Virus record (IMG/VR): IMGVR_UViG_3300028797_000099
Coordinates: 64,001-128,000 of that record
Origin: a virus
Lineage: Duplodnaviria; Heunggongvirae; Uroviricota; Caudoviricetes
Length of the DNA stretch: 64,000 bases
Reading direction: 5' to 3' (one strand)
The notes under the pieces were generated by a model. That model did not search any database and was not told the origin of the DNA. It saw nothing but the letters and a program-made list of their open reading frames with translations. Below, piece by piece: positions 1,488-13,057 of this stretch. How positions within the stretch are numbered: the first letter of the stretch is position 1; every line of letters begins with the position of its first letter. Both the position numbers and the translations under genes were made by a program.

Positions 1488-3179
1488 ATGAGAATGAACC
1501 CACTTTTTAACCATTACGCTTCCAAGCTAGATTTAACACTTCCGCAATACGAAGCGGTATGTGCATTGGCTAATTCCTTGTTTGAAGATGCGGCATCGAC
1601 AGCAAAGCACAAGACAAAAAGAGCCATACGTAATGCATTGCCCGCATTTAACATTTTTTTCGATGAAATCGCAAAAGACGACGAAAAAAATCCGATATTG
1701 ACTGAAAGAGGCAATACACAGACCGTACTCGAATATCTTGAAAATAATGTGAGGGCTACATTCTTCCACGACGGAACAACAAGTATAAAGTTCGAGCCAG
1801 GCGCCGCTAGAATTGCTTACGGCGAACTTGGCATGCAAGCCCACGAGGATACTAGAAAACTTACTCTCCTTGGAAAGATACTACAAGAAATTTCGATAGC
1901 TCATGAAACCGAATACGACTCAAACCTAAACGGCATGACGTTCAATGAACTTAAAGACCGATTCGGTGCATCAATAAATAAAGCCGACGCCGAAACCGAA
2001 GAAAAGTTAAAAACCAAGACCTACGATAAAAGTGATTACATAATCAAATGGATTCCAGATTTCAGTACAGCACAACAGTATAGTCAATACACTGACTATG
2101 GGCCAAACGAACACTGGTGTTTGACTCATGATAAAAGAATGTGGGACAACTACACAGGCTCGCATAACGAAAACAAAGTATATTTCTGTCATGTTCCTAA
2201 TTTCGAATCCGTTCCGAGAGAAATTGGACCTAATGCGCCGCTTGATGACTATGGACTTAGTTTGGTTTCCGTTATAGTAATGCCAGATAAGCACTTGCGA
2301 GCAGTAACATCTCGTTGGAATCATACTAACGGTGGTTCTGATGGCGTCATGAACAAGGAGCAATTATCCGATTTGCTTGGCGGATACGTATTTAACATTT
2401 GCCCCCCTTACAGCAGAGAAGAAGTCATCAAACGAGGATATATCTACCTGGACGAAGTTCAGCAAATGCTCGATGATGGTATTGACCTGAGTAAATATAT
2501 TGATGGTAAAGGGCGTATTAAGATTAATGACAAAATGAATATTCTGCACGGGCGGAAACTTTTGTCTGACCAATGGTTTGATTGGATAGATGACTTCAGG
2601 AATGGATTCGCCCTTGTTCAATTGAATGAAAAAGAAAACTACATCGACATAGAAGGAAATCTGGTGTCCGACCAATGGTTTGAGGAGGTAGAGGACTTCG
2701 TTAATGGATTCGCTAAGGTTTACTTGAATGGAAAAACGAACTTAATCAACACAGCGGGAAAGCTACTGTCTGACCAATGGTTTGATAGGATAGGTATTAT
2801 CAAAAATGGATTCACCCATGTTAAATTGAATGGAAAATACAACTTCATCGACACAGAAGGAAATCTGGTGTCCGACCAATGGTTTGATGCTGTCTCATTC
2901 GATAATGGATTCGCCCGTGTTCAATTGAATGGAAAATACAACTACATCGGCACAGAAGGAAATCTACTCTCTGGCCAATGGTTTGATGTGGTAGGGTGGT
3001 TCAGTGGTGGATTCGCCCGTGTTAAATTGAATGGAAAATACAACTTCATCGACACGAAAGGAAATCTTCTATCTGACCAATGGTTTGATGAGGTAGGTAG
3101 GTTCGATAATGGAGTCGCTGTTGTTCGATTGAATGAAAAATACGCCAACATCGATACAGAAGGAAATATAAGGCGGTAG
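1488..3179 (+). CDS. WG (KWG Leptospira-type) repeat protein with shared N-terminal leader
   Basis: C-terminal tandem repeats LSDQWFD..FxNGFAxVxLNGKYNxIDTEGN; N-terminus LFNHYASKLDLTLPQYEAV..LFE. Confidence 0.8.
   Translation: MRMNPLFNHYASKLDLTLPQYEAVCALANSLFEDAASTAKHKTKRAIRNALPAFNIFFDEIAKDDEKNPILTERGNTQTVLEYLENNVRATFFHDGTTSIKFEPGAARIAYGELGMQAHEDTRKLTLLGKILQEISIAHETEYDSNLNGMTFNELKDRFGASINKADAETEEKLKTKTYDKSDYIIKWIPDFSTAQQYSQYTDYGPNEHWCLTHDKRMWDNYTGSHNENKVYFCHVPNFESVPREIGPNAPLDDYGLSLVSVIVMPDKHLRAVTSRWNHTNGGSDGVMNKEQLSDLLGGYVFNICPPYSREEVIKRGYIYLDEVQQMLDDGIDLSKYIDGKGRIKINDKMNILHGRKLLSDQWFDWIDDFRNGFALVQLNEKENYIDIEGNLVSDQWFEEVEDFVNGFAKVYLNGKTNLINTAGKLLSDQWFDRIGIIKNGFTHVKLNGKYNFIDTEGNLVSDQWFDAVSFDNGFARVQLNGKYNYIGTEGNLLSGQWFDVVGWFSGGFARVKLNGKYNFIDTKGNLLSDQWFDEVGRFDNGVAVVRLNEKYANIDTEGNIRR
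2560..3175 (+). repeat. About six tandem ~100-bp coding repeats (WG repeats)
   Basis: Recurrent gaccaatggtttga and ggattcgc...aattgaatggaaaatacaac. Confidence 0.85.
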
Positions 3180-3224
3180 GGAAATACTCGACCCATCATC
3201 CTTTCTGAACGCTTTATAGCAAAC

Positions 3225-3265
3225 AAAAAAGGCCCGACTATTAAAGTCGGGCCCATATGTTTTAT
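3225..3265. terminator. Intrinsic terminator between convergent units
   Basis: aaaaaa-ggcccgac-tattaaa-gtcgggcc. Confidence 0.7.
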
Positions 3266-3284
3266 CTTTCGGCTTTGCAATTAG

Positions 3285-3358
3285 TACCCGAGACAGGGGT
3301 CGAACCTGTCACCAACGGTTTAGAAGACCGTCGCTCTAGTCCACTGAGCTACTCGGGC
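3285..3358 (-). tRNA. tRNA-Arg(TCT)
   Basis: Cloverleaf; ACGGT-CTTCTAA-ACCGT. Confidence 0.9.
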
Positions 3359-3369
3359 AAGTTCATTAG

Positions 3370-3443
3370 TCGGCAGAGTGGGACTCGAACCCACAAAATC
3401 TTGGGTTTGAACCAAGCACGTATACCAGTTCCATCACCTGCCG
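3370..3443 (-). tRNA. tRNA-Leu(CAA), short variable loop
   Basis: CTTGG-TTCAAAC-CCAAG; Leu-type D loop, 5-nt variable region. Confidence 0.8.
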
Positions 3444-3450
3444 AATTTAG

Positions 3451-3534
3451 TCGGTAAGGGGGGACTCGAACCCCCACGTCCTTACGGACACCAGCCCCTC
3501 AAGCTGATGCGCCTACCAGTTCCGCCACCTACCG
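3451..3534 (-). tRNA. tRNA-Leu(GAG)
   Basis: TCAGC-TTGAGGG-GCTGG; long variable arm. Confidence 0.9.
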
Positions 3535-3552
3535 AGATGGAAATAAAAGTAA

Positions 3553-3634
3553 TCGGAAAGGTGGGACTCGAACCCACACACCTTTCAGCACAAGAGCCTA
3601 AATCTTGCGTGTCTACCAGTTCCACCACAATCCG
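3553..3634 (-). tRNA. tRNA-Leu(TAG)
   Basis: CAAGA-TTTAGGC-TCTTG; long arm; two U-U mismatches in acceptor stem. Confidence 0.85.
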
Positions 3635-3648
3635 AAAAAAAGTTATAG

Positions 3649-3721
3649 CAGGACGTGATGGACTCGAACCACCGACTAACAGTTTTGGAGACTGCAGACC
3701 TACCAACTGGTCGAACGCCCT
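3649..3721 (-). tRNA. tRNA-Trp(CCA)
   Basis: GCAGT-CTCCAAA-ACTGT. Confidence 0.9.
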
Positions 3722-3754
3722 GTAATGGATGGCCTTTCGGCCACCCGAATGAAA

Positions 3755-5098
3755 CTACTCTTCGGTGTTTCCATTCATCTTTTCGTACTCAGCAATGTAC
3801 TTGAAGATACCGTCGCTGAATCCGTTGATGTGAATGAACTTACCGTATTCAATTCCGTTCTGGTACGTTGCTACGTTCACAATGTACTTGTGCGGAATTC
3901 TGAGTACTTCCTTGCTGAAGTAGCTACCAGAAGACTGTTCGTCCGTAATGATAATCAATCGGTCGAACGGTCTGTTGTTAGCCTTGACAGCATCGTTCGT
4001 GCTTCTCTGGATGTCAGTACCACCCATAGAACGAGCACAACGGTCAGCAAGAGAGAAACCCTTCTCCGTGCAAAGATGTGCAGTATTGTCAAAGGTGTAG
4101 ACCTTCGTGAACTCGCACACTTCGTTCATGATAGCAGCGATGGAAGCTGCTGCCTGAGCACGGGTGACTTCGCCCTTGCCGGACAACTGACAACTCATGG
4201 AACCCGACGTGTCAACCATGAAGAGAGTGTTCCCTTCAAGCTTGTCGAACGTTTCCCTGGCGGATTGAAGCATTGCTGCTTCAAGCTGCTTGGAGTATGT
4301 TCCAGCGCTGTACTTGTTGGCCGTATAGAAGTTGTACGGCATGACACCACGAACATTCATCTTCTCGATGCCATCCACGATTGCTCGTTGTGACACCTTT
4401 GCCTGCTCCATGTTGCGGAGGTTCCTCAACAGGGCAAGCGCACCGAGCCTGTTCTGGGAAAGAAGGTTCTCGAAGACTTCCTTCTTATCCTTGCCTGCGC
4501 TCAACTCAGTTTCCCAGGTAAGCGGTGTTGCAAGGCTGTCGTCCACAATCTTCTTGTAGAGAGCGTTCGTTTCGTCGTTCGGGGCCTTCGGGTGGCAAAG
4601 CATGACCGCATCCTTCAAGGAAACCGTCTTCTTCGTGCCCTTGTACTTACCGAACTGGTACTCGTCGAACTTGGCGAATGCCAATGCGAGACCCTTCTGC
4701 AACTGCTTCGGCAACGTCTTCTTGCCTTCCGCAAGGAACATTGCAAGCAACTCGGTGATGTCATCAACACGGGTTACGGTCGAATTGACAAGTTCCTTGG
4801 TAAGCTTGCCTTGCTGTGCAAGAACAGTCAGCATGAACAACGGGGTATGACGAAGGTGATATTCGTGTTTTACCTTGTTCAATGTTGCAATGGCGAACTC
4901 GGTGCTGACCTTGCCCATGTACTCCTTGATGCGGTCCTTGACCGACTGACCGTCCTCATAGAACGTATCCTCGTTCAAAAGACAGCTGAGCACGGTACGC
5001 TGCAGCTTCTCCTCGTAGCCAATGTGTGATGCCTTTCCACCCTCGTAAGTAGACACCGGGGTAGATACCTTTCTCTTGTTAATCGACGCCATAATCAT
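3755..5098 (-). CDS. rsr: TROVE-domain Ro60-like RNA-binding protein with C-terminal vWA domain
   Basis: TYEGG, L.RTVLSCLL.ED.FYE, LRHTPL, KFDEYQFGKY, TWETELS, ALLRNLRN; vWA DTSGSM, GGTD, IITDEQ. Confidence 0.92.
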   Translation of the reverse strand: MIMASINKRKVSTPVSTYEGGKASHIGYEEKLQRTVLSCLLNEDTFYEDGQSVKDRIKEYMGKVSTEFAIATLNKVKHEYHLRHTPLFMLTVLAQQGKLTKELVNSTVTRVDDITELLAMFLAEGKKTLPKQLQKGLALAFAKFDEYQFGKYKGTKKTVSLKDAVMLCHPKAPNDETNALYKKIVDDSLATPLTWETELSAGKDKKEVFENLLSQNRLGALALLRNLRNMEQAKVSQRAIVDGIEKMNVRGVMPYNFYTANKYSAGTYSKQLEAAMLQSARETFDKLEGNTLFMVDTSGSMSCQLSGKGEVTRAQAAASIAAIMNEVCEFTKVYTFDNTAHLCTEKGFSLADRCARSMGGTDIQRSTNDAVKANNRPFDRLIIITDEQSSGSYFSKEVLRIPHKYIVNVATYQNGIEYGKFIHINGFSDGIFKYIAEYEKMNGNTEE

Positions 5099-5138
5099 CT
5101 CCTTTGTTGATTAGGAATTGTTGATGTTGAAAAAATAT

Positions 5139-5277
5139 TGCCAGATGCCGGACTCGAACCGACAACTTCCTGCTTGGATTATCTAAGTAGCACATCCAAC
5201 GCCACAGACCATATGGACTGGGAAAAAGCGAACGTGAACATTGAGGGCTGGCGCTCTACCTATTGAGCTAATCTGAC
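5139..5277 (-). ncRNA. tRNA-shaped Y-like RNA A (tRNA-Gly-like body, ~65-nt insert in anticodon loop)
   Basis: Acceptor GTCAGAT/ATCTGGC, D arm, T arm TTCGAGT; insert CGCTTTTTCCC...GTGGCGTTGGA..TACTTAG. Confidence 0.75.
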
Positions 5278-5287
5278 ATAAATGTAG

Positions 5288-5432
5288 TGCCGATGGAAAG
5301 ATTCGAACTTTCAATAGTTTTTAGCTAAGTAACTCTCACTATCGCAGCGGTTTCCCGAGAAAAGCGCAAGAGGAACATTTCCCCTGCCAGTTATCAACCT
5401 GTGACACAGATTGACGGGGAAATAACATCGGC
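5288..5432 (-). ncRNA. tRNA-shaped Y-like RNA B (D arm replaced by long hairpin)
   Basis: Acceptor GCCGATG/CATCGGC, T arm GAAAG-TTCGAAT-CTTTC, module GCTTTTCTC...TGCGATAG..TTACTTAG. Confidence 0.65.
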
Positions 5433-5445
5433 ATAAAAATTGTAG

Positions 5446-5579
5446 TACCATAGGCTGGATTTGAACCAACGACCACAAGTTCCTCATCGAAGTAAGCCAT
5501 TCAAACGTCACCTTTTCAGGGAAAAAAGACGAAAGGCGATTTCATATACTCGTGCTCTACCAGACTGAGCTACTATGGT
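5446..5579 (-). ncRNA. tRNA-shaped Y-like RNA C
   Basis: Acceptor ACCATAG/CTATGGT, D and T arms; insert CTTTCGTCTTTTTTCCC-TGAAAA-GGTGACGTTTGAATGGCTTACTT. Confidence 0.75.
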
Positions 5580-5586
5580 ATTTTAG

Positions 5587-5670
5587 AGGAGAGAACAGGG
5601 TTCGAACCTGCGTGTCGTTTCCGACAAAGCTTTAGCAAAGCTCCGCTTTTACCAATTCAGCCATCTCTCC
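5587..5670 (-). tRNA. tRNA-Ser(GCT)
   Basis: GAGCT-TTGCTAA-AGCTT; long arm. Confidence 0.9.
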
Positions 5671-5674
5671 ATAA

Positions 5675-5748
5675 TGTGCTTGGCCAGAGTCGAACTGGCG
5701 ACCTACAGTTTAGGAAACTGTTGCTCTATCCAGCTGAGCTACAAGCAC
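5675..5748 (-). tRNA. tRNA-Arg(CCT)
   Basis: ACAGT-TTCCTAA-ACTGT. Confidence 0.9.
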
Positions 5749-5755
5749 AAGCGGA

Positions 5756-6037
5756 TTACTTCAATGTATCATCAGTGTATTCCAACGATACCTTGTCATT
5801 GCCGAAAAAGATTTCGACAGTAACAGTGTAAACCTTTTCAGTGTTGTACCTGTCCCAAACTCGCCACAACTTGGCACCAACGGAAGCTGCGGCACCCTGG
5901 AAGATGTCGCATACGCTATTAAGGACATCCTTCTTAGGCAAGGTCGTATCTTTGCTATCGACCGTTTTAAGCAACTTCGCCATCTTGTCAGCAACGGCTG
6001 CCTTTACAGCATTAACATCATTCAATGATGCACTCAT
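5756..6037 (-). CDS. Hypothetical protein inside tRNA array
   Basis: AAAGGAG SD before ATG 6037 (MSASLNDV...). Confidence 0.65.
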   Translation of the reverse strand: MSASLNDVNAVKAAVADKMAKLLKTVDSKDTTLPKKDVLNSVCDIFQGAAASVGAKLWRVWDRYNTEKVYTVTVEIFFGNDKVSLEYTDDTLK

Positions 6038-6065
6038 ATCATCTCCTTTACTGTTTAACATTTCG

Positions 6066-6150
6066 AGCGCACGGTAAGAGTCGAACTTACGTGGGCGTTC
6101 AGCCTAGAGGTGTTGCAGACCTCCCCCTTCGACCGCTTGGGTACGTGAGC
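6066..6150 (-). tRNA. tRNA-Cys(GCA) with long variable arm
   Basis: GAGGT-CTGCAAC-ACCTC; U73; Tyr-like D loop and long arm. Confidence 0.75.
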
Positions 6151-6154
6151 AAAA

Positions 6155-6755
6155 ATCGCCATTCTCTTTATAACAAACCGAATGGCGAAGGCCGTGTATC
6201 CTTATATAGACACAATCATCCACGCTTATGTACACTAACATGGCCAGTTTTTCGGATTCACCGCAGGGAACAGTACCTGATTGTAACAACGAAGACGTCT
6301 GTTATCTTGACTTAATGCACCTCTTGCAACAACATTGCTGTACCCGCCCTCATTAAGGACCTGCCTCTATTCGGAACGGCAGCTGCAATTCTTTGTCGGT
6401 ACACATGGGCTTTAATACCCACATTCCTTCGTGCAATATATCCTGTTAGAAAGAACAGGAACTTGTGCATCATCTTCTTCCCTTGGCTTCCACACCTTGA
6501 ATGAGAGCAGTCTGCCCTCACCGATTTGGGTTTAACTAATCGGGATGATGCATCGGGAATCACACGGATAGTAGCATGCCAGTCACGGTGAACTATCTGC
6601 GTCCTATCCATAACTACCGCCAACTGCATTGTGGCGAAGACGGCAGTCATTTTTTAGTGATTGTGGAAAATCTTGTCGGCACCCGTTATGTGGCTTTCGC
6701 CGCAACCTTTGGCTTTTATAACGTGTCTTGCAACACATGACCATCTTTCAGTGCC
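6155..6755 (-). ncRNA. Candidate ~600-nt structured RNA
   Basis: No convincing ORF; multiple perfect inverted repeats; sits between tRNAs. Confidence 0.35.
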
Positions 6756-6762
6756 TATTTAG

Positions 6763-6835
6763 TTGGGGTAGCTGGACTCGAACCAACGAATATGGGAATC
6801 AAAATCCCATGTCTTACCAACTTGACGATACCCCA
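6763..6835 (-). tRNA. tRNA-Gln(TTG)
   Basis: TGGGA-TTTTGAT-TCCCA. Confidence 0.9.
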
Positions 6836-6842
6836 GTAATAG

Positions 6843-6915
6843 TACCCCATCAAGGGTTCGAACCTTGGACCCGCTGATTAAGAGTCAGCTGCTCTTCCAA
6901 CTGAGCTAATGAGGC
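6843..6915 (-). tRNA. tRNA-Lys(CTT)
   Basis: GCTGA-CTCTTAA-TCAGC. Confidence 0.9.
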
Positions 6916-6924
6916 GAAACTTCG

Positions 6925-6997
<73 letters not shown>

Positions 6998-7001
6998 ATA
7001 G

Positions 7002-7074
7002 AGCGGATAATGGGGTTCGAACCCACAACAACCTGCTTGGAGGGCAGGAACTCTACCAGTTGAGCTACATCCGC
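7002..7074 (-). tRNA. tRNA-Gly(TCC), C at position 33
   Basis: CCTGC-CCTCCAA-GCAGG; U73. Confidence 0.85.
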
Positions 7075-7082
7075 AAAATTAG

Positions 7083-7152
7083 TTAACCTTCGTGAATTCG
7101 AACCACGACACAGAACGAACCGAAGCCCGTTGTGCGCCAAACCTGGAGGCTA
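7083..7152 (-). ncRNA. tRNA-like RNA with UUCG tetraloop in place of anticodon loop
   Basis: Acceptor TAGCCTC/AAGGTTA, T arm CGTGG-TTCGAAT-TCACG, AACGGGC-TTCG-GTTCGTT. Confidence 0.55.
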
Positions 7153-7404
7153 AGATTTGTGCACCAATCTATTGCACCATCAGCTCTTTGGGACGCTGAC
7201 ACCCCACCTTCATCTCGGGACGGTGCGAAACGCTATCTATTTGACACTCGCCAAGGCATAGAATTATCCTTATGTGAAGTTCACCCGCATTACCAGATAC
7301 GGTTTTCGACGCCATATCCTTCCTGCCCTTTTTACTTCCAACTTTAGAGGCCGTTTGATTTGCAATGTCATCACAGTAAATAAACGGTAAGAAAGCAAGA
7401 TTCG

Positions 7405-7480
7405 TGGGCCCCCCGAGACTTGAACTCGGAAAACCTTCGGGTTATGAGTCCGCTGCTCTGACCTATTGAGCTAGAGGCCC
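7405..7480 (-). tRNA. tRNA(CAT), probably Ile2 (lysidine type)
   Basis: GGGCCTC acceptor, CTCATAA loop; resembles bacterial Ile2; weak anticodon stem. Confidence 0.7.
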
Positions 7481-7491
7481 AGAAACAATTT

Positions 7492-7623
7492 GATTAGGAT
7501 AGCACCAATGAGCAGCACGTTGTATTACTACAACTCGGTCTCACAGCTACCATTTCCCTCCCTTGGAGGAGAGCGTATTAAGCACTCAGCATTACTACAT
7601 TGAGTTCATTTATACGACTAATC
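7492..7623 (-). ncRNA. Structured RNA H, closed by GATTAG/CTAATC, with anticodon-like hairpin (TAA)
   Basis: GAGTG-CTTAATA-CGCTC followed by TCCTCC-AAG-GGAGGG and GTTGTA-GTAA-TACAAC hairpins. Confidence 0.4.
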
Positions 7624-7627
7624 TTAG

Positions 7628-7758
7628 CGCCAGCGGCAGGACTCGAACCTACGACCCCGAGCTTCCTAATGCTAAGTAACCCATTCCAAAACGCCACCCT
7701 TGCGGGAGAAAATGCGGACAGGTGTTGTACGTGCTCTAACCAACTGAGCTACGCTGGC
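7628..7758 (-). ncRNA. tRNA-shaped Y-like RNA D (56-nt insert, 8-nt anticodon-position loop)
   Basis: GCCAGCG/CGCTGGC acceptor; CG[insert]AGC-ATTAGGAA-GCTCG; T arm. Confidence 0.78.
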
Positions 7759-7766
7759 AAAAAAAA

Positions 7767-7859
7767 TCCAGGTAAATGCAGAAACCGATGTGCCCATCGC
7801 AAGGCACTATACATTAAGAGTGTACAAGGTCTATGTATCGGTTATCTATCGACACTGGA
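7767..7859 (-). ncRNA. Permuted Y-like RNA G displaying a Lys(CTT) anticodon stem-loop
   Basis: TCCAG-TGTCGAT...TTTAC-CTGGA closing stem; GTACA-CTCTTAA-TGTAT. Confidence 0.62.
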
Positions 7860-7870
7860 TGAATTTCTAG

Positions 7871-7999
7871 TACCAGGGGCAGGACTCGAACCTACGACCA
7901 CGAGCTTAACAGGCTAAGTAACCCGTTCCAAACGCCACCCTTGCGGGAGAAAAACGGACAGGTATTTTTACGTGCTCTAACCAACTGAGCTACCCTGGA
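7871..7999 (-). ncRNA. tRNA-shaped Y-like RNA E (tRNA-Asn(GTT) plus 55-nt insert between nt 28 and 29)
   Basis: Removing the insert yields a 74-nt cloverleaf with CGAGC-CTGTTAA-GCTCG. Confidence 0.8.
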
Positions 8000-8008
8000 G
8001 AAAAATTA

Positions 8009-8095
8009 AAGTCAGGTAAAAGACGAAAGCGCATTGCCATAGGCGAACGGATTTGCAGTCTGTTTCTAAGTAACGCTTTCAAACGACACTGACTT
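8009..8095 (-). ncRNA. Permuted Y-like RNA F displaying a GCA anticodon stem-loop
   Basis: AAGTCAG-TGTCGTTTGAAAGCG-TTACTTAG...AACAGA-CTGCAAA-TCCGTT...CGCTTTC-GTCTTTTAC-CTGACTT. Confidence 0.68.
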
Positions 8096-8097
8096 AG

Positions 8098-8186
8098 TGG
8101 GTTGAATAGGAGTCGAACCTACAATGTTTACCCAGAGGGAACGGATTTACAGTCCGTTGCGAAACCACCATCCTCGCAGTCAACCC
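8098..8186 (-). tRNA. tRNA-Tyr(GTA)
   Basis: AACGGA-CTGTAAA-TCCGTT; long arm. Confidence 0.85.
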
Positions 8187-8201
8187 AAATAAAATTGTTA
8201 C

Positions 8202-8274
8202 TGGAGCATAGGAGATTCGAACTCCTGACCCCCTGCGTGCAAAGCAGGTGCTCTACCAACTGAGCTAATACCCC
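8202..8274 (-). tRNA. tRNA-Ala(TGC)
   Basis: CCTGC-TTTGCAC-GCAGG; G3.U70. Confidence 0.92.
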
Positions 8275-8335
8275 ATAAATTGCAAAGCCAAAATTTCAAT
8301 CAGCGGGCTAACAACTCGTGTCAACCACGGTCAGA

Positions 8336-8364
8336 AAGATAGAAACTAAGACATCGTTTGTCAA
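8336..8364 (-). promoter_or_regulatory. Internal sigma70-type promoter of the RNA array
   Basis: TTGACA-N17-TATCTT with AT-rich upstream tract. Confidence 0.7.
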
Positions 8365-8398
8365 GGGTTTCTACCAAAATTTTCAAACTTTTTTTTAG

Positions 8399-8480
8399 TC
8401 GGGTACGTGAGATTCGAACCCACACTCCTCGCAGAACATCGCCCTGAACGATGCGTGTCTACCAATTCCACCAGAACCCG
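8399..8480 (-). tRNA. tRNA-Leu(CAG)
   Basis: CATCG-TTCAGGG-CGATG; long arm. Confidence 0.9.
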
Positions 8481-8486
8481 AAGTAG

Positions 8487-8561
8487 TTGCGGAGAACGGA
8501 CTTGAACCGTTGACACACGGATTATGATTCCGTTGCTCTAAACCAACTGAGCTACACCGCA
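8487..8561 (-). tRNA. tRNA-Met(CAT), elongator
   Basis: ACGGA-ATCATAA-TCCGT. Confidence 0.8.
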
Positions 8562-8564
8562 TCG

Positions 8565-8855
8565 GTGATGACGCTTTTGGACTATCAGTCTACGGTCTTT
8601 CATAGCAGGTACGTCATCGTGGGCAACCTCAAACTTCTCCAGTTGTAGTCGTTTGCCACCTCGGGTTCGTAAGCACCTCGCATGCTTCAACCCGTCATTA
8701 GCTCTTTTACGAGAAGAACGCTAATGGCCTTTTAAATGGCGGCGTTTTAGCCTGTCACCGAGCAGGGGCCACGTTTCCCGTCCATCCCATGCCCGTCTCG
8801 GCATGATTGACTCAAATTGACGGGACCCGCCTTGCAAGCACAACAAAATCATAGA
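8565..8855 (-). ncRNA. Candidate structured RNA (~290 nt)
   Basis: Serial stems GATGACG/CGTCATC, GGCAA/TTGCC, CGGGTT/AACCCG, CATTAGC/GCTAATG. Confidence 0.35.
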
Positions 8856-8863
8856 ATAGTTAG

Positions 8864-8934
8864 TCCGCCAGTCGAGACTCGAACTCGAACTAAGGGAATC
8901 ACAATCCCTTGTGCTACCGTTACACCACTGAGGG
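8864..8934 (-). tRNA. tRNA-His(GTG), atypical (A73, no encoded G-1)
   Basis: AGGGA-TTGTGAT-TCCCT. Confidence 0.75.
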
Positions 8935-8939
8935 GGTAG

Positions 8940-9014
8940 TACTCCCAATAGGATTCGAACCTATGACCCCTTGCTTGTAAGGCAAGCGCTCTGAACCAAC
9001 TGAGCTATGGAAGT
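8940..9014 (-). tRNA. tRNA-Val(TAC)
   Basis: CTTGC-CTTACAA-GCAAG. Confidence 0.9.
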
Positions 9015-9022
9015 AAATTTAG

Positions 9023-9105
9023 CGCAACCAGCGAGACTTGAACTCGCACGCCCATAGGGCACCAGCGTGACAGGCTGGCCTGGCTACCAATTTCAGCATG
9101 GCTGC
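9023..9105 (-). tRNA. tRNA-Asp(GTC) with long variable arm
   Basis: CCAGC-CTGTCAC-GCTGG; arm TGCCC-TAT-GGGCG; G73. Confidence 0.78.
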
Positions 9106-9112
9106 ATACATA

Positions 9113-9186
9113 TAGCTCCAACGGGACTCGAACCCGTATTACCGCCTTGAGAGGGCGACGAACTAGGCCAGTTATTCGATAGAGCC
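9113..9186 (-). tRNA. tRNA-Glu(CTC)
   Basis: TCGCC-CTCTCAA-GGCGG. Confidence 0.9.
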
Positions 9187-9194
9187 AAAATACA

Positions 9195-9376
9195 ATGGAT
9201 AGGTGAATATGCGGAGTATCACCGTGACAGCTTCCCCGTACCGATGCGAAATCTGCTTATAACCTAAAACAAACCGTTTCGCTTTTACGCCTATCTTGTC
9301 GGCACGTATATCTGTCGTAGCTGGCATGTAGGTTGTTCCTTCAGGCAACCAGCCCGCTGAACAGAGTTCTATCCAA
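9195..9376 (-). ncRNA. Candidate ~180-nt long irregular hairpin RNA (6S-like shape)
   Basis: GGATAG/CTATCC ends; GACAG/CTGTC, CGTGCCGA/TCGGTACG, GCGAAA/TTTCGC stems separated by bubbles. Confidence 0.4.
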
Positions 9377-9382
9377 TGTTAG

Positions 9383-9459
9383 TGACACTAGCAGGACTCG
9401 AACCTGCGACCTTCTCGTTCGTAGCGAGACGCTCTAAATTCCGACTGAGCTATAATGCC
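9383..9459 (-). tRNA. tRNA-Arg(ACG)
   Basis: TCTCG-CTACGAA-CGAGA. Confidence 0.9.
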
Positions 9460-9468
9460 ATAAAAGTA

Positions 9469-9541
9469 AGCGTCATGTCGGACTCGAACCGACGACCTTC
9501 TCCATGGCAAGGAGACGCTCTACCAACTGAGCTAATGACGC
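9469..9541 (-). tRNA. tRNA-Gly(GCC)
   Basis: TCTCC-TTGCCAT-GGAGA; U73. Confidence 0.9.
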
Positions 9542-9549
9542 AGTAAAAG

Positions 9550-9642
9550 AAGCGAGGGTGGGATTCGAACCCACGGATGACAGGGCCACTGCCACCGACG
9601 GTTTTCAAGACCGCTGCAATAAGCCAGCTCTACCACCTCGCC
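9550..9642 (-). tRNA. tRNA-Ser(TGA)
   Basis: GCGGT-CTTGAAA-ACCGT; long arm. Confidence 0.9.
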
Positions 9643-9650
9643 ATATTTAG

Positions 9651-9724
9651 TCGGAATGGCAGGATTTGGACCTACGACCTCTTGCTCCCGAAGCAAGCGC
9701 TCTACCAGACTGAGCTATATTCCG
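9651..9724 (-). tRNA. tRNA-Pro(CGG)
   Basis: CTTGC-TTCGGGA-GCAAG. Confidence 0.88.
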
Positions 9725-9731
9725 AAATTTA

Positions 9732-10005
9732 TTTAAACACAAACTTACAGGCGTCCTAATTTCAAGGACGGATTAAGGAGCACACTTGGTGGTTAACCCA
9801 AAGTTTATCTCCCCCATTCTTATTTCAAATGGTCTCACGTGGCATATTTTAGTAGAGCCAATACTACACCTCTGCGACCATCATTCTGGTATTCATCTAA
9901 TTCGCAGAGACAGATTCCTCATCCCTGAGTTTTCCCCATCAGGGTTAGCCCGTTAGCATGAAATCAAGAACGATGCAACACGGGTTCTACTCATTTGTGT
10001 TTAAA
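9732..10005 (-). ncRNA. Candidate ~275-nt multi-hairpin RNA
   Basis: 12-bp terminal stem TTTAAACACAAA/TTTGTGTTTAAA enclosing at least 6 hairpins. Confidence 0.5.
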
Positions 10006-10019
10006 CAAAGTTTGATGAA

Positions 10020-10240
10020 TTCGAGGAGCTGCGGGGGTTACGGCATCCTTTCCGCTTGTCGCCGAGGCCATCGGTTTGTCATCTATGTTGCGAACGGGCT
10101 CACCTACTAGCCCTTACATAGACCGAAGATGGTTATCGTTACCATTTAATAGCAGGCTTCATCACGCCTCCCGTCCATCGATATCCGAACGAAACGGGTC
10201 TGGCCCTCAATGACGGACATTTAGCCAGATGTTTTCTAAC
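10020..10240 (-). ncRNA. Candidate structured RNA (~220 nt)
   Basis: Stems TCTGGC/GCCAGA, CCCGT/ACGGG, ATGGT/ACCAT, GGGCT/AGCCC. Confidence 0.3.
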
Positions 10241-10330
10241 TCCGACAGTAAGACTCGAACTTACGACCTGAGCTTTAGGTGACTACTTATGGCTACTGAG
10301 TGAACCATATTACACCTATAATTTAATTAG

Positions 10331-10403
10331 CTCCGATGGAGAGACTCGAACTCCCGACCAGCTCATTACGAATGAGCTGCTCTACCAACTGAGCTACAAC
10401 GGA
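10331..10403 (-). tRNA. tRNA-Thr(CGT)
   Basis: GCTCA-TTCGTAA-TGAGC. Confidence 0.88.
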
Positions 10404-10409
10404 ATGTAG

Positions 10410-10483
10410 TAGCGCCAACGGGACTCGAACCCGTATTGCCGCCTTGAAAGGGCGATGAACTAGGCCAGTTATTCGATAGCGCC
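10410..10483 (-). tRNA. tRNA-Glu(TTC)
   Basis: TCGCC-CTTTCAA-GGCGG; near-copy of tRNA-Glu(CTC). Confidence 0.9.
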
Positions 10484-10493
10484 AAAAATATAG

Positions 10494-10567
10494 TCCGCAA
10501 CCCTGGACTCGAACCAGGAACCTCCACCTTATCAGAGTGGCTATCTAACCAGTTGCTATAGCTGCGG
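10494..10567 (-). tRNA. tRNA-Ile(GAT)
   Basis: CCACT-CTGATAA-GGTGG. Confidence 0.85.
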
Positions 10568-10654
10568 ATAAAAACAATAGGTGGGTGGTTTATAACCACC
10601 AAAATCCCACCCCGTGGGCACCTACTTTGTTTCACCTATTGTTTAATACTTTCG

Positions 10655-10728
10655 TGCCAGCTTCTGGAGTCGAACCAGACTACTCGGATTTTCAGTCCGG
10701 CCCAATCACCGGGTTTGGGTTAGCTGGC
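10655..10728 (-). tRNA. tRNA-Phe(GAA)
   Basis: CCGGA-CTGAAAA-TCCGA. Confidence 0.85.
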
Positions 10729-10824
10729 AAAATGATTGACCAAGAATCACGAAGGAGTCCAACCTTCCACATGGACTGAGCCATCGCCAGCGGGAACATT
10801 GAGACCCTTGGCCAATCGAGTTAG

Positions 10825-10898
10825 TAGCGGGGGCAGGACTCGAACACTGCGACCTTTGGGTTATGAGCCCAACAAGCTACCAACTGCTCCACCCCGCA
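10825..10898 (-). tRNA. tRNA-fMet(CAT), initiator
   Basis: TTGGG-CTCATAA-CCCAA (three G-C pairs); 1:72 mismatch. Confidence 0.88.
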
Positions 10899-10911
10899 AA
10901 TTTCTTCATAG

Positions 10912-10984
10912 TTGCCGTTGAGCGGTTCGAACGCCCGAATACAGGAGTCAGAGTCCTGTGCCTTACCAGCTTGGCGAAACGGCA
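10912..10984 (-). tRNA. tRNA-Gln(CTG)
   Basis: CAGGA-CTCTGAC-TCCTG. Confidence 0.88.
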
Positions 10985-10992
10985 ATAAATAG

Positions 10993-11063
10993 CTCACGTT
11001 AAAGGAATCGAACCTTTGTTTCCCGCTGCAGACAGGCAACTCTTCCAGTTAAGCTAAACGTGA
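10993..11063 (-). pseudogene. Degenerate tRNA, anticodon undetermined (TGC?)
   Basis: Good acceptor TCACGTT/AACGTGA and T arm; irregular anticodon arm GCCTG-TCTGCAG-CGGGA. Confidence 0.5.
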
Positions 11064-11066
11064 ATA

Positions 11067-11139
11067 AGCCTGTGGAGAGGCTCGAACTCCCGACCAGATG
11101 CTTACAAAGCAACTGCTCTACCAACTGAGCTACACAGGC
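11067..11139 (-). tRNA. tRNA-Thr(TGT)
   Basis: GTTGC-TTTGTAA-GCATC. Confidence 0.88.
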
Positions 11140-11144
11140 GATAA

Positions 11145-11520
11145 AACAACTTCACCAATTCCACCATCATATCGGCCTACACCGATATTAACTTCTCCCG
11201 CTCCCGAAGCGAGTGTGTCTCCTGATTACAAAGCTAAAATGCTCAGGCTAATAGGCGGCCCTTTTCGGTTGGGTTCCCACAATGGAGCTACCATCACGAT
11301 TATCACAACCTATTAGGGGCCGCTTTTCACCTGCGGATGTTTCTGGGAGCTACCCAGAGGTCCATTCTAAACTTGGGGCGTCGTTTTGCTTTACCGTCCC
11401 TACCGTCCCGGCCAGACTTCCTGCGCACTCCGTACTAGCCTGCGAATTTCGTTTCAGCGGATGTATATGCGGTAGTTAACTACCACCTGGGAACTATGCC
11501 ATAACCTGTGTCAACATCCT
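11145..11520 (-). ncRNA. Candidate ~370-nt structured RNA
   Basis: Hairpins GGTAG-TTAA-CTACC, CTGGG-TAGCT-CCCAG, ATATCGG-TGTAGG-CCGATAT; no credible ORF. Confidence 0.35.
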
Positions 11521-11531
11521 TTTAAATTTAG

Positions 11532-11604
11532 CTGACATGACTGGACTCGAACCAGTGACCAGACGATTAACAGTCGCCGACTCTACCTACTGAGCTACAT
11601 GTCA
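11532..11604 (-). tRNA. tRNA-Asn(GTT)
   Basis: GGCGA-CTGTTAA-TCGTC; G73. Confidence 0.9.
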
Positions 11605-11610
11605 ATAATA

Positions 11611-11920
11611 TCCCTGGGCACCACCCCTTTCACATGTTGTCATGGGTGCGTCAGGATTGGACGCAGAAAGCTTTACTCAAAGCTAACGAACCTACCGCCT
11701 GTAACGATGGGTAAACACCGAATGGAGGAAATAGGACCAATTACCGATTACCTTTTACCATTTTAGACGGATTTGTTGTCGGTTGTGGCACCAAACCCCA
11801 ACGAACTGGCCGTCGCCAGACATAGAGTTTGCAAACCGTCAGAAAGCCACTTTACCATAAAGCATATACCGAAGTATATACCGATGGTTCTCGTCCATCC
11901 AACACAAACTGGAAGGACAA
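11611..11920 (-). ncRNA. Candidate ~310-nt structured RNA
   Basis: ATATAC-TTCG-GTATAT, CTGGC-GACG-GCCAG, AGCTTT-GAGT-AAAGCT, TGCGTC/GACGCA. Confidence 0.35.
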
Positions 11921-11923
11921 TAG

Positions 11924-11997
11924 TCGGGGTAGCCAGATTCGAACTGACGACATCCTGCTCCCAAAGCAGGCGCTCTACCAGACTGAGCTACACCCCG
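11924..11997 (-). tRNA. tRNA-Pro(TGG)
   Basis: CCTGC-TTTGGGA-GCAGG. Confidence 0.9.
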
Positions 11998-12004
11998 CAA
12001 GTTT

Positions 12005-12378
12005 TTAAGGTGCTTCCGGCACCACCGTTGAACGGCATAGCGGTTACTCACCGCTAGGAAACGCTGTCGTTCCCTTATTCGGAGACCTCCATATGAAGAC
12101 CCCCGAAAAAGAGAACGCAAGAACGATGCCTTCCGACCTGTATCGAACAAGGCGTTTTCAACATTGCTGCTGACGGTTCCCTCACCTACGGGTACACCGT
12201 TCTCAACGTCATGATTGTTTAAATCACCCAACACAGTCCATTGCCAAGACTATCATGTGTGAGTAAGGTTATCAACCTAGCAACTTTTGCAAAGCCGAAA
12301 TGTCAATCTTCTGAAAGGACTCACGGTCCAATCTGACGCAGGAAAGTAAGTTCGAAACCTTGACTGTTCCCGTTTACG
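12005..12378 (-). ncRNA. Candidate ~370-nt RNA at the 5' end of the array transcript
   Basis: Starts right after a consensus promoter; stems GAGAACG/CGTTCTC, TAGCGG/CCGCTA, GGTGC/GCACC. Confidence 0.35.
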
Positions 12379-12384
12379 TCGTCA

Positions 12385-12413
12385 ATTATAGAAATATTCA
12401 AAAGCTTTGTCAA
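12385..12413 (-). promoter_or_regulatory. Consensus sigma70 promoter driving the RNA array
   Basis: Perfect TTGACA-N17-TATAAT. Confidence 0.85.
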
Positions 12414-12442
12414 GGGGGAATTCGATATTTTTTTTAAATTTT

Positions 12443-13057
12443 TTATCGAATTTCTTCCGTCGCTCTGAAAGCTATTAGTTCGTAACTGTCTTTATCACAA
12501 TCTCGAACGTACTTTTTGAACGACTCAAAGGATTTGAACATCTCGCCAAGACTCAGGAACATATATTCTCCGACCTCGAAGTCGGGCGCCCTTAGCTTGG
12601 TCTTGCCGCAGATATCAATAATCTCTTCCATTGATAGCTGTCGGTTACTGTCCTTGTCCACCACGTTGATTACGTTGTAGTCATAGACTGGTTGTCGATA
12701 GGTACCCGTTACGGGGTTATCGAGTCTGATGAATTTCAACGTTGCCATTATGGTGATTTCGTAACCGCTTGGCAAGTGTTCTTCGATAAGATGTCCAAAC
12801 TGTTTGGCGATATCGGAGCACACGTTGTATTCATCTCCCTCTGGTGGTGTGAAGTTCGCCAGCTTCGCTGTTCGATTAAACTTCTTCCACCAAAGATGCC
12901 CTGTCTGTTCCAATATCGTACAATACTTCAATTCAAGGCCAATGTCTGCACGCTGGAACCAGAAATGCCTGTTCAAATTATTTGAATAAAATTCGAGCAG
13001 GGCAGCCTCATCCAGTACGGACAGGTTGATGACATTCATGTCTTCGTATACGCTCAT
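12443..13057 (-). CDS. Hypothetical protein
   Basis: Long ORF; GGAG SD before ATG 13057. Confidence 0.7.
   Translation of the reverse strand: MSVYEDMNVINLSVLDEAALLEFYSNNLNRHFWFQRADIGLELKYCTILEQTGHLWWKKFNRTAKLANFTPPEGDEYNVCSDIAKQFGHLIEEHLPSGYEITIMATLKFIRLDNPVTGTYRQPVYDYNVINVVDKDSNRQLSMEEIIDICGKTKLRAPDFEVGEYMFLSLGEMFKSFESFKKYVRDCDKDSYELIAFRATEEIR

Follow-up and report, generated by a model that had tools for sequence, protein, structure and literature searches.

Candidate Ro60-binding Y RNAs in tRNA order, with an anticodon-like hairpin, in a phage tRNA array

RNAs D and E beside a phage Ro60 gene

The window analysed here is a 64,000-nucleotide (nt) stretch, positions 64,001 to 128,000, of the Caudoviricetes record IMGVR_UViG_3300028797_000099 in IMG/VR. 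Within its tRNA array lie two paralogous RNAs, designated D and E, in which a tRNA-like body is interrupted in the anticodon stem by a hairpin module of 55-56 nt. A script check placed both on the minus strand at the coordinates below, where a reading made from the sequence alone had put them. They alternate with two smaller Y-like RNAs, F and G, and are found on the same strand as, and 2.5-2.9 kb upstream of, a gene for a homologue of Ro60 (Rsr), a proximity also typical of the Y RNA class YrlA. The arms of YrlA are permuted relative to those of tRNA; this arrangement is called the published order below, and that of D and E the tRNA order.

7871..7999, minus strand: RNA E, a tRNA-order Y RNA of 129 nt including A73, with an Asn-type anticodon hairpin; followed by CUA
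7916..7970, minus strand: E module, 55 nt, the presumed Ro60/Rsr-binding arm
7903..7915, minus strand: E anticodon mini-hairpin AGC-CUGUUAA-GCU (positions 29-41)
7628..7758, minus strand: RNA D, a tRNA-order Y RNA of 131 nt including G73; paralogue of E
7674..7729, minus strand: D module, 56 nt, with the anatomy of the E module
7660..7673, minus strand: D mini-hairpin AGC-AUUAGGAA-GCU, with an 8-nt loop
7759..7869, minus strand: RNA F, between E and D; small Y-like RNA in the published order, ends approximate
8000..8096, minus strand: RNA G, adjoining E on its upstream side; small, Y-like, and of published order, ends approximate
3755..5098, minus strand: Ro60/Rsr homologue of 447 amino acids with TROVE and Ro60-type vWA domains, inside the tRNA array; presumed protein partner

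In RNA E, an acceptor stem with a U1.U72 mismatch (UCCAGGG/CCCUGGU) is followed by the D arm (7990-7974), A26, and C27 G28 (7972-7971); beyond the module and mini-hairpin, the chain resumes with C42 G43 (7902-7901), a variable loop UGGUC, and the T arm (7895-7879). As the sequence-only reading had claimed, removal of exactly 55 nt yields a 74-nt tRNA-Asn(GUU) with a 7-nt loop, which is called by ARAGORN; the call is lost when 56 nt or more are removed. Exactly this loop is found in the phage's own tRNA-Asn. RNA D, which shares 85% identity with E across the tRNA body, has a perfect acceptor stem (GCCAGCG/CGCUGGC). The D arm (GCUC-AGUUGGUUA-GAGC), the T arm (GUAGG-UUCGAGU-CCUGC), and G15/C48 give D and E the elbow features of YrlA. 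Removal of 56 nt from D leaves an 8-nt loop, again as claimed, which resembles a Leu(UAG)-type loop with one additional A. Both RNAs therefore have the 7-bp acceptor stem, D arm, 5-nt variable loop, and T arm of a canonical tRNA; its uninterrupted 5-bp anticodon stem with a 7-nt loop is replaced by a stem split past pair 28-42 by 55-56 nt. The Rfam tRNA model matches E partially and below threshold (24.9 bits). Minimum free energy folds of single D and E sequences do not surpass those of shuffled sequences (z of -0.7 and +0.7). They also get the D arm wrong, so that alone they are uninformative. The possibility that the two bodies are recent copies of the phage tRNA-Asn was rejected: their identity to it, 71%, is not above that to several other tRNAs.

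The ends of RNA F form the module (with GUGUCGAUAG as one strand), and the RNA finishes in a U run. It contains an internal 5-bp/7-nt hairpin (7825-7809) whose loop, CUCUUAA (Lys CUU), is identical to that of the phage tRNA-Lys(CUU). RNA G, which also ends in a U run, carries the loop CUGCAAA (GCA, Cys-type). Since G lies immediately 5' of E and F immediately 5' of D, and both are U-tailed, it appears that a G-E unit was duplicated to give F-D.

A protein search for Ro60 relatives returned six close phage contigs (84-93% identity) and five distant ones (26-38%). The order G-E-F-D and orthologues of D and E are present in all six close contigs. In particular, AGC-CUGUUAA-GCU is invariant in all seven E orthologues, which retain the U1.U72 mismatch and A73, while the module varies (GGCGUUUGG to UGCGAUAG) and acceptor pair 7-66 covaries from G-C to A-U. 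In the 84% clade, the D orthologues instead carry AGU-CUGCAAA-ACU, with a canonical 7-nt Cys GCA loop, and this switch is accompanied by a compensatory change of C31-G39 to U31-A39. U73 is found in three of the four D orthologues of this clade; the fourth (L005), which scores 48.9 bits with the Rfam tRNA model, has A73. U73 together with a GCA anticodon constitutes the classical identity set of cysteinyl-tRNA synthetase (CysRS). Across 12 D/E-type sequences (one of them from an unrelated contig, L073), 97.7% of the cells in a pair count were paired and 12 pairs had changed on both sides, all three mini-stem pairs being compensatory. None of 500 shuffles reached these values, slid registers also fell far short, and the mini-stem was recovered independently by RNAalifold. 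These counts cover the helices of the tRNA body and mini-stem, since MAFFT misaligns the 5' strand of the module.

The module, the junction, and the displayed loops

Every insert, folded alone, gives one common hairpin, which consists, from 5' to 3', of an A-rich linker, a basal helix, an internal loop, a CCC-GCAA-GGG tetraloop hairpin, and the exit UUACUU. In the internal loop, a GGCG(U/A)... sequence on the 3' strand (GGCGUUUG in E) faces a U-rich strand. The module occurs at least seven times within 5 kb of the window. On the distant phage contigs, RNAs just upstream of the Ro60 gene share a GUGGCG...GGUUACUUC strand, e.g., GUGGCGUAGAGGUCGGUUACUUC, in the published YrlA order. Four of these contigs (L009-L012, Ro60 35-38% identical) were scanned, and their RNAs match the Rfam YrlA model at E values of 1e-9 to 4e-4, below the gathering score yet well outside chance; the model aligns GGGUUACUUC to its consensus ggGgaaCUAc, which includes the conserved YUAY. 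One distant Ro60-bearing contig also encodes a tRNA with a CUA anticodon (L010:4903-4978; amber-suppressor type, 'Pyl' according to ARAGORN).

The position and spacing of the motif in D and E match the Rfam YrlA consensus while its sequence deviates, and YUAY is present as UUACUU. The YrlA model itself (RF02553) gives no match to D or E up to an E value of 1, nor does any other family at its gathering threshold; the blindness of RF02553 is attributable to the permuted order, since D and E run in tRNA order, their open acceptor stems covary, and a GCAA tetraloop closes the module. The 3' strand of the module runs into the 3' half of the anticodon stem, the variable loop, and the T arm, and thus takes the role of the YrlA 5' strand, so that D and E correspond to circular permutations of YrlA. 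The insert is best described as the stem with which YrlA-type Y RNAs bind Ro60/Rsr, here closed into a hairpin; its binding to Ro60 is predicted from homology to YrlA.

The distribution of such RNAs was surveyed with a pattern composed of GGUUACUU, 12-20 nt, GGUC, 3 nt, and the start of a T arm, which matched at least 119 stretches of viral and at least 120 of bacterial or archaeal origin. Among the matches listed, to which the counts below also refer, a Ro60 homologue lies in the fetched flank of 94 of 119 viral and 79 of 120 bacterial stretches, and approximately 200 are in the published YrlA order. The tRNA order was found in the clade of the window, in two further contigs (L073 and L075), among Sorangium, Polyangium, and their relatives, and on a contig binned to an ANME-1 metagenome-assembled genome. 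The tRNA-order RNA of L073 displays a Ser GCU loop, and its Ro60 gene lies 160 nt downstream.

Several of these tRNA-order RNAs have features of their own. The viral contig L075 carries two Y-like RNAs (476-609 and 763-892) with a genomically encoded CCA, and one of the two has its module enclosed by a full 5-bp anticodon stem, where the loop would be. In Sorangium, Polyangium, and related genomes (L163, L180, L194, L212, L226, L240, and L152), the RNAs have the 28/29 junction and A73, which is followed by CC in L152, L194, L212, L226, and L240; they bear anticodon-like hairpins, e.g., CUCCUAA, and a Ro60 homologue is found in the flank of four. The ANME-1 contig (L190, Methanophagales) encodes an RNA in which the same module occurs together with a Thr-type hairpin, CGC-CUUGUAA-GCG; the contig could be viral or mis-binned.

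To locate the junction, the two nt past position 26 were compared with the two nt before the 5-nt variable loop. Both pairs (27-28 with 42-43) form in 129 of 139 distinct RNAs of either order, against a mean of 36.7 and a maximum of 54 with shuffled partners, and at least eight pair types occur (CU/AG, CG/CG, CC/GG, GC/GC, UC/GA, GU/AC, CA/UG, and GG/CC). A pairing of 42-43 with the last two U of UACUU was also considered and rejected, as it fits only 70 of the 139. Between UACUU and this 2-bp base, a 3-bp/7-nt hairpin is present in 86 of 113 distinct viral sequences (20.4 when shuffled) and in 70 of 109 bacterial ones (16 when shuffled), with 19 stem types.

The loops follow the rules of tRNA anticodon loops. 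In the viral set, U33 is found in 75, a purine at 37 in 75, and A38 in 76 of the 86 loops; in the bacterial set, C32 is found in 57 and U33 in 64 of 70. Moreover, G37 occurs in 16 of 18 viral loops with G36 vs. one of 57 others (Fisher p = 3e-13), a rule equally obeyed by the real tRNAs of the phage, and A37 follows U36 in 45 of 46. The displayed triplets are diverse (GUU, GCU, UGU, UGG, CUU, CAG, UGC, and others). The covariation in the 139 RNAs and the loop statistics uphold the earlier claim that the branch point of the module lies between nt 28 and 29 and that the anticodon stem-loop is kept. The present data identify the 5-nt NGGUC as the true variable loop and assign positions 29-41 to the hairpin following UACUU.

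The tRNA array and the possible role of D and E

The parent IMG/VR record spans 175 kb and is estimated to be approximately 42% complete, which points to a very large phage. Megablast of 3000-12500 against GenBank phages returned single tRNA matches only and no related phage. ARAGORN made 36 tRNA calls at 3284-11997, all on the minus strand; one of them, 'tRNA-Asn 7870-7944', is an artefact in which part of the E insert was taken as a false 5' half. The open reading frame at 3755-5098 matches Pfam TROVE (E 1e-15) and contains the Ro60 vWA domain, and its product resembles the Ro60 of Thermus phage phiLo (PDB 9KOP/9L5Y) over nearly the full length (E 1e-26). Three relatives of D and E lie directly upstream of this gene, and RtcB and a Band-7 protein are encoded approximately 39 kb from the Ro60 locus; the last two entries below are given in the coordinates of stretch L253 (G000:C1:24000-33000).

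5139-5277, minus strand: RNA A, tRNA-order relative with the module at another insertion point
5288-5432, minus strand: RNA B, tRNA-order relative with the module at another insertion point
5446-5579, minus strand: RNA C, tRNA-order relative with the module at another insertion point
2815-3762 and 4797-6008, minus strand: Band-7 and RtcB genes
6377-6452, minus strand: lone tRNA-like gene

Two of the RNAs A, B, and C reach the Rfam tRNA threshold despite their large inserts (43.5 and 48 bits). In RNA C, the module apparently lies between positions 31 and 32 of a full 5-bp stem, and a 7-nt AUGAGGA (Leu GAG-type, with G36-G37) precedes the 3' strand of that stem; thus, the paralogues carry the module at differing points of the anticodon arm. 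In the array, 25 of 35 tRNA genes have no encoded CCA but N73 followed by CUA, and the same trailer is present on RNAs B, C, D, and E. Searches of the 175 kb, about 42% of the genome, turned up neither a CCA-adding enzyme nor a class II synthetase or an Rnl-type ligase. The only tRNA-Cys(GCA) (6065-6150, minus strand, 86 nt) and the only tRNA-Asp(GUC) (9022-9105, minus strand, 84 nt) have long, class II-like variable arms, which is unusual for these tRNAs. The lone 74-nt tRNA-like gene just upstream of Band-7/RtcB is called as Leu UAA, has D-stem mismatches, and contains no insert; it is probably the Band-7-associated tRNA-like RNA predicted in 2016.

It is likely that D and E are YrlA-class Y RNAs in ordinary tRNA order, with free acceptor ends and a Ro60-docking module. 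This explanation builds directly on how the two RNAs are laid out, are conserved, and covary, on a module homologous to part of YrlA, and on the association with Ro60 genes. The Ro60 homologue 2.5 kb downstream on the same strand also lends support to the earlier proposal that whole tRNA mimics are joined to a Ro60-binding module. Transcription of D and E would take place as part of the phage tRNA array. As their shared 3' N73-CUA trailers suggest, they would probably mature like the neighbouring tRNAs, with RNase P acting at the 5' end and CCA being added at the 3' end. The predicted molecule is an L-shaped tRNA whose anticodon stem forms a three-way junction: pairs 27-43 and 28-42 would be its base, pairs 29-41 to 31-39 with the 7-nt (E) or 8-nt (D) loop a short anticodon hairpin, and the 55-56-nt hairpin would leave the 5' strand between nt 28 and 29. 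As a YrlA-type stem, in which a GNCG(A/U)... strand is partnered by a pyrimidine-rich one and YUAY forms the exit, the module would dock on the phage Ro60. The resulting particle would display a near-complete, isoacceptor-specific tRNA with a free acceptor end, of Asn identity in E and Leu-like or Cys identity in D and its orthologues.

Such a particle would most likely serve to show a specific anticodon arm to anticodon-reading proteins, as part of the investment of the phage in tRNA supply and repair. D and E could then act as competitors or decoys for host anticodon nucleases, or as adaptors bringing Ro60 to tRNA-handling enzymes, for example toward synthetases or modification enzymes. Judging from sequence, D and E would be Ro60-bound, isoacceptor-specific mimics, probably with a role in conflicts over tRNA cleavage and repair. 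Charging and the baiting of nucleases, both put forward in the sequence-only reading, are hypotheses.

Several points weigh against this explanation. We infer Ro60 binding, maturation, and function of D and E from sequence. RF02553 scores neither RNA, so the homology to YrlA rests on partial alignments and motifs, and the Ro60 motif departs from the published GNCGAAN0-1G, being GGCGUUUG here and GCGAUAG or GCGACAG in orthologues. Because of the conserved U1.U72 and A73 in E and the 8-nt loop in D, neither is a perfect copy of its cognate tRNA, and nothing ties the displayed anticodons to any particular nuclease. Finally, the loop statistics come from sequences that were chosen by one motif and share ancestry, and the excess of U36-A37-A38 could partly reflect common descent.

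It has also to be considered that D and E are aminoacylated without splicing and that their main partners are synthetases or EF-Tu rather than nucleases, with Ro60 tethered to, or sequestering, the charging and translation machinery. Free 7-bp acceptor stems, the tRNA-type 3' trailer, the encoded CCA of the two L075 RNAs, and the combination of GCA and U73 in three D orthologues, which fits the CysRS identity set, all speak for charging. In addition, Mycobacterium smegmatis YrlA gains CCA following RNase P cleavage (PMC4201824). However, the D of the window has an 8-nt loop, the L005 orthologue has A73 rather than U73, and the 175 kb that were searched (about 42% of the genome) revealed neither a class II synthetase nor a CCA-adding enzyme. 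Bacterial asparaginyl-tRNA synthetase favours G73, to which A73 with U1.U72 makes E a poor fit. Charging as the main purpose is thus unlikely; it is nevertheless compatible with, and not exclusive of, the display of an anticodon arm by Y RNAs of the YrlA class.

It is very unlikely that D and E are true tRNA genes (Asn; Cys or Leu) with a short intron-like element that is excised, the ends being joined, e.g., by the phage RtcB. Deletion of the insert does leave a clean tRNA-Asn, and RtcB is encoded by the phage, but the module, exit motif, and hairpin recur in approximately 200 published-order RNAs whose own ends are the module strands, so that nothing in them is excisable; the suggestion of the sequence-only reading that the module is removed and the RNA religated finds no support here. 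Inspection also revealed no bulge-helix-bulge, as the junctions face each other at a three-way junction and do not flank a 4-bp helix. Moreover, the module has been conserved in the form of a Ro60-type stem that accompanies Ro60 genes, the array already contains ordinary genes for tRNA-Asn and tRNA-Cys, and the spliced product would have an 8-nt loop in D and U1.U72 in E. Bacteria are not known to possess a splicing endonuclease. That the insert is not a group I intron, as had been stated earlier, is borne out by its length of 55-56 nt, far below the size of such introns, and by the lack of any match to an Rfam intron family up to an E value of 1 over 3000-12500. The notion that D and E are decaying tRNA pseudogenes struck by a repeated hairpin element, with an accidental leftover anticodon loop, draws on the recurrence of the module (at least seven copies within 5 kb) and the differing insertion points in A, C, and D/E, but is rejected with scarcely any doubt on account of compensatory changes that keep all helices in at least seven phage contigs, an E hairpin that is invariant while its flanks change, a junction retained in myxobacteria and distant phages, and loops that follow tRNA rules far beyond chance.

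A broader but doubtful proposal may be put forward: that YrlA-class partners of Ro60 mimic particular isoacceptors rather than tRNA in general, and that the 'variable arm' hairpin works as an anticodon arm. The identity of this arm (Asn, Ser, Thr, Pro, Lys, Cys, and others) would set the reader that is engaged, which could be an anticodon nuclease of the host, a synthetase, or an enzyme of tRNA modification; phages would swap loops, as in D (Cys/Leu-like), in an arms race over tRNA cleavage, and the tRNA-order forms might be CCA-tailed and charged.

Novelty and comparison with known systems

That phages carry tRNA mimics linked to Ro60 has been known since 2014. The tRNA-order layout and the anticodon identity of the 'V' hairpin were not found in the accessible literature; an earlier mention elsewhere is possible. 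Three points are new here: the 28/29 junction was tested, an anticodon arm with its loop grammar was found to be retained in both orders, and orthologues were seen to switch loop identity. If the tRNA-like domain has retained a genuine anticodon arm of defined identity, candidates for its partner narrow to proteins that read anticodon loops, and the idea becomes directly testable with matched and mismatched loops. The tRNA-order forms also suggest a simple evolutionary route, as two such genes in tandem contain a published-order YrlA between their modules. Furthermore, these forms offer a possible reason why earlier covariance searches, such as that of 2014, recovered few Y RNAs from some groups with Ro60, delta-proteobacteria among them. 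For phage biology, a layer of Ro60 and tRNA mimics would stand beside the known tactics in tRNA cleavage, namely, large tRNA arrays and RtcB.

YrlA (RF02553; Chen et al. 2014, PMC4201824; structure in Wang et al. 2018, 10.1101/312249) is the closest relative. Like D and E, it is known from bacteria and phages, is encoded near the Ro60/Rsr gene on the same strand and possesses tRNA-like D and T arms. Its GNCG... strand (GNCGAAN0-1G on the YrlA 5' strand; Chen et al. 2014, PMC4201824), followed by YUAY, leads into the T arm, as does a presumed counterpart with a deviating motif in D and E. YrlA differs in that its ends form the Ro60-binding stem, its acceptor is a closed stem-loop, and its T arm lies 5' of the D arm, whereas D and E have the tRNA order, free acceptor ends, and a closed module. 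The hairpin after YUAY was named 'V' and equated with the variable arm (Chen et al. 2014, PMC4201824), and YrlA is said to lack an anticodon loop (Wang et al. 2018, 10.1101/312249); in D and E, by contrast, this hairpin is located at positions 29-41 and follows anticodon-loop rules. YrlA cleaved by RNase P (Chen et al. 2014, PMC4201824) resembles D and E in its open acceptor stem, bears CCA, and is still bound by Rsr, but it consists of two base-paired pieces in permuted order, while D and E would be single tRNA-order chains from the start.

Yrn1 of Deinococcus radiodurans, another Y RNA bound by Ro60, allows a drawing that includes a T arm and possibly an anticodon arm (Chen et al. 2014). Unlike in D and E, its Ro60 stem is in the acceptor position, its putative anticodon loop has 6 nt, and it has no full D arm. 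According to Wang et al. 2018 (10.1101/312249), Burroughs and Aravind predicted in 2016 the b7a-tRNA, a tRNA-like noncoding RNA that, like D and E, is in tRNA order and tied to RNA-repair loci, occasionally beside Rsr. As described there, it travels with Band-7 and RtcB, closely resembles an authentic tRNA, and has no Ro60 module; D and E are approximately 39 kb from the Band-7 and RtcB genes of the phage.

Interruption of the anticodon arm is shared with intron-containing tRNA genes (group I introns in bacterial anticodon loops, bulge-helix-bulge introns in archaea), from which D and E are set apart by a conserved, presumably protein-binding 55-56-nt hairpin at 28/29, without a group I core or bulge-helix-bulge and with no sign of removal. 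The permuted tRNA genes of algae and archaea offer another parallel, in that circular permutation relates two gene orders, as it does YrlA and D/E. With regard to function, the Salmonella rsr-yrlBA-rtcBA operon responds to cleaved tRNAs, and YrlA's tRNA-like domain has been proposed as a possible competitive inhibitor of an anticodon nuclease (Hughes et al. 2020, PMC7790460). A Ro60 particle showing a specific anticodon arm would fit this idea of nuclease inhibition.

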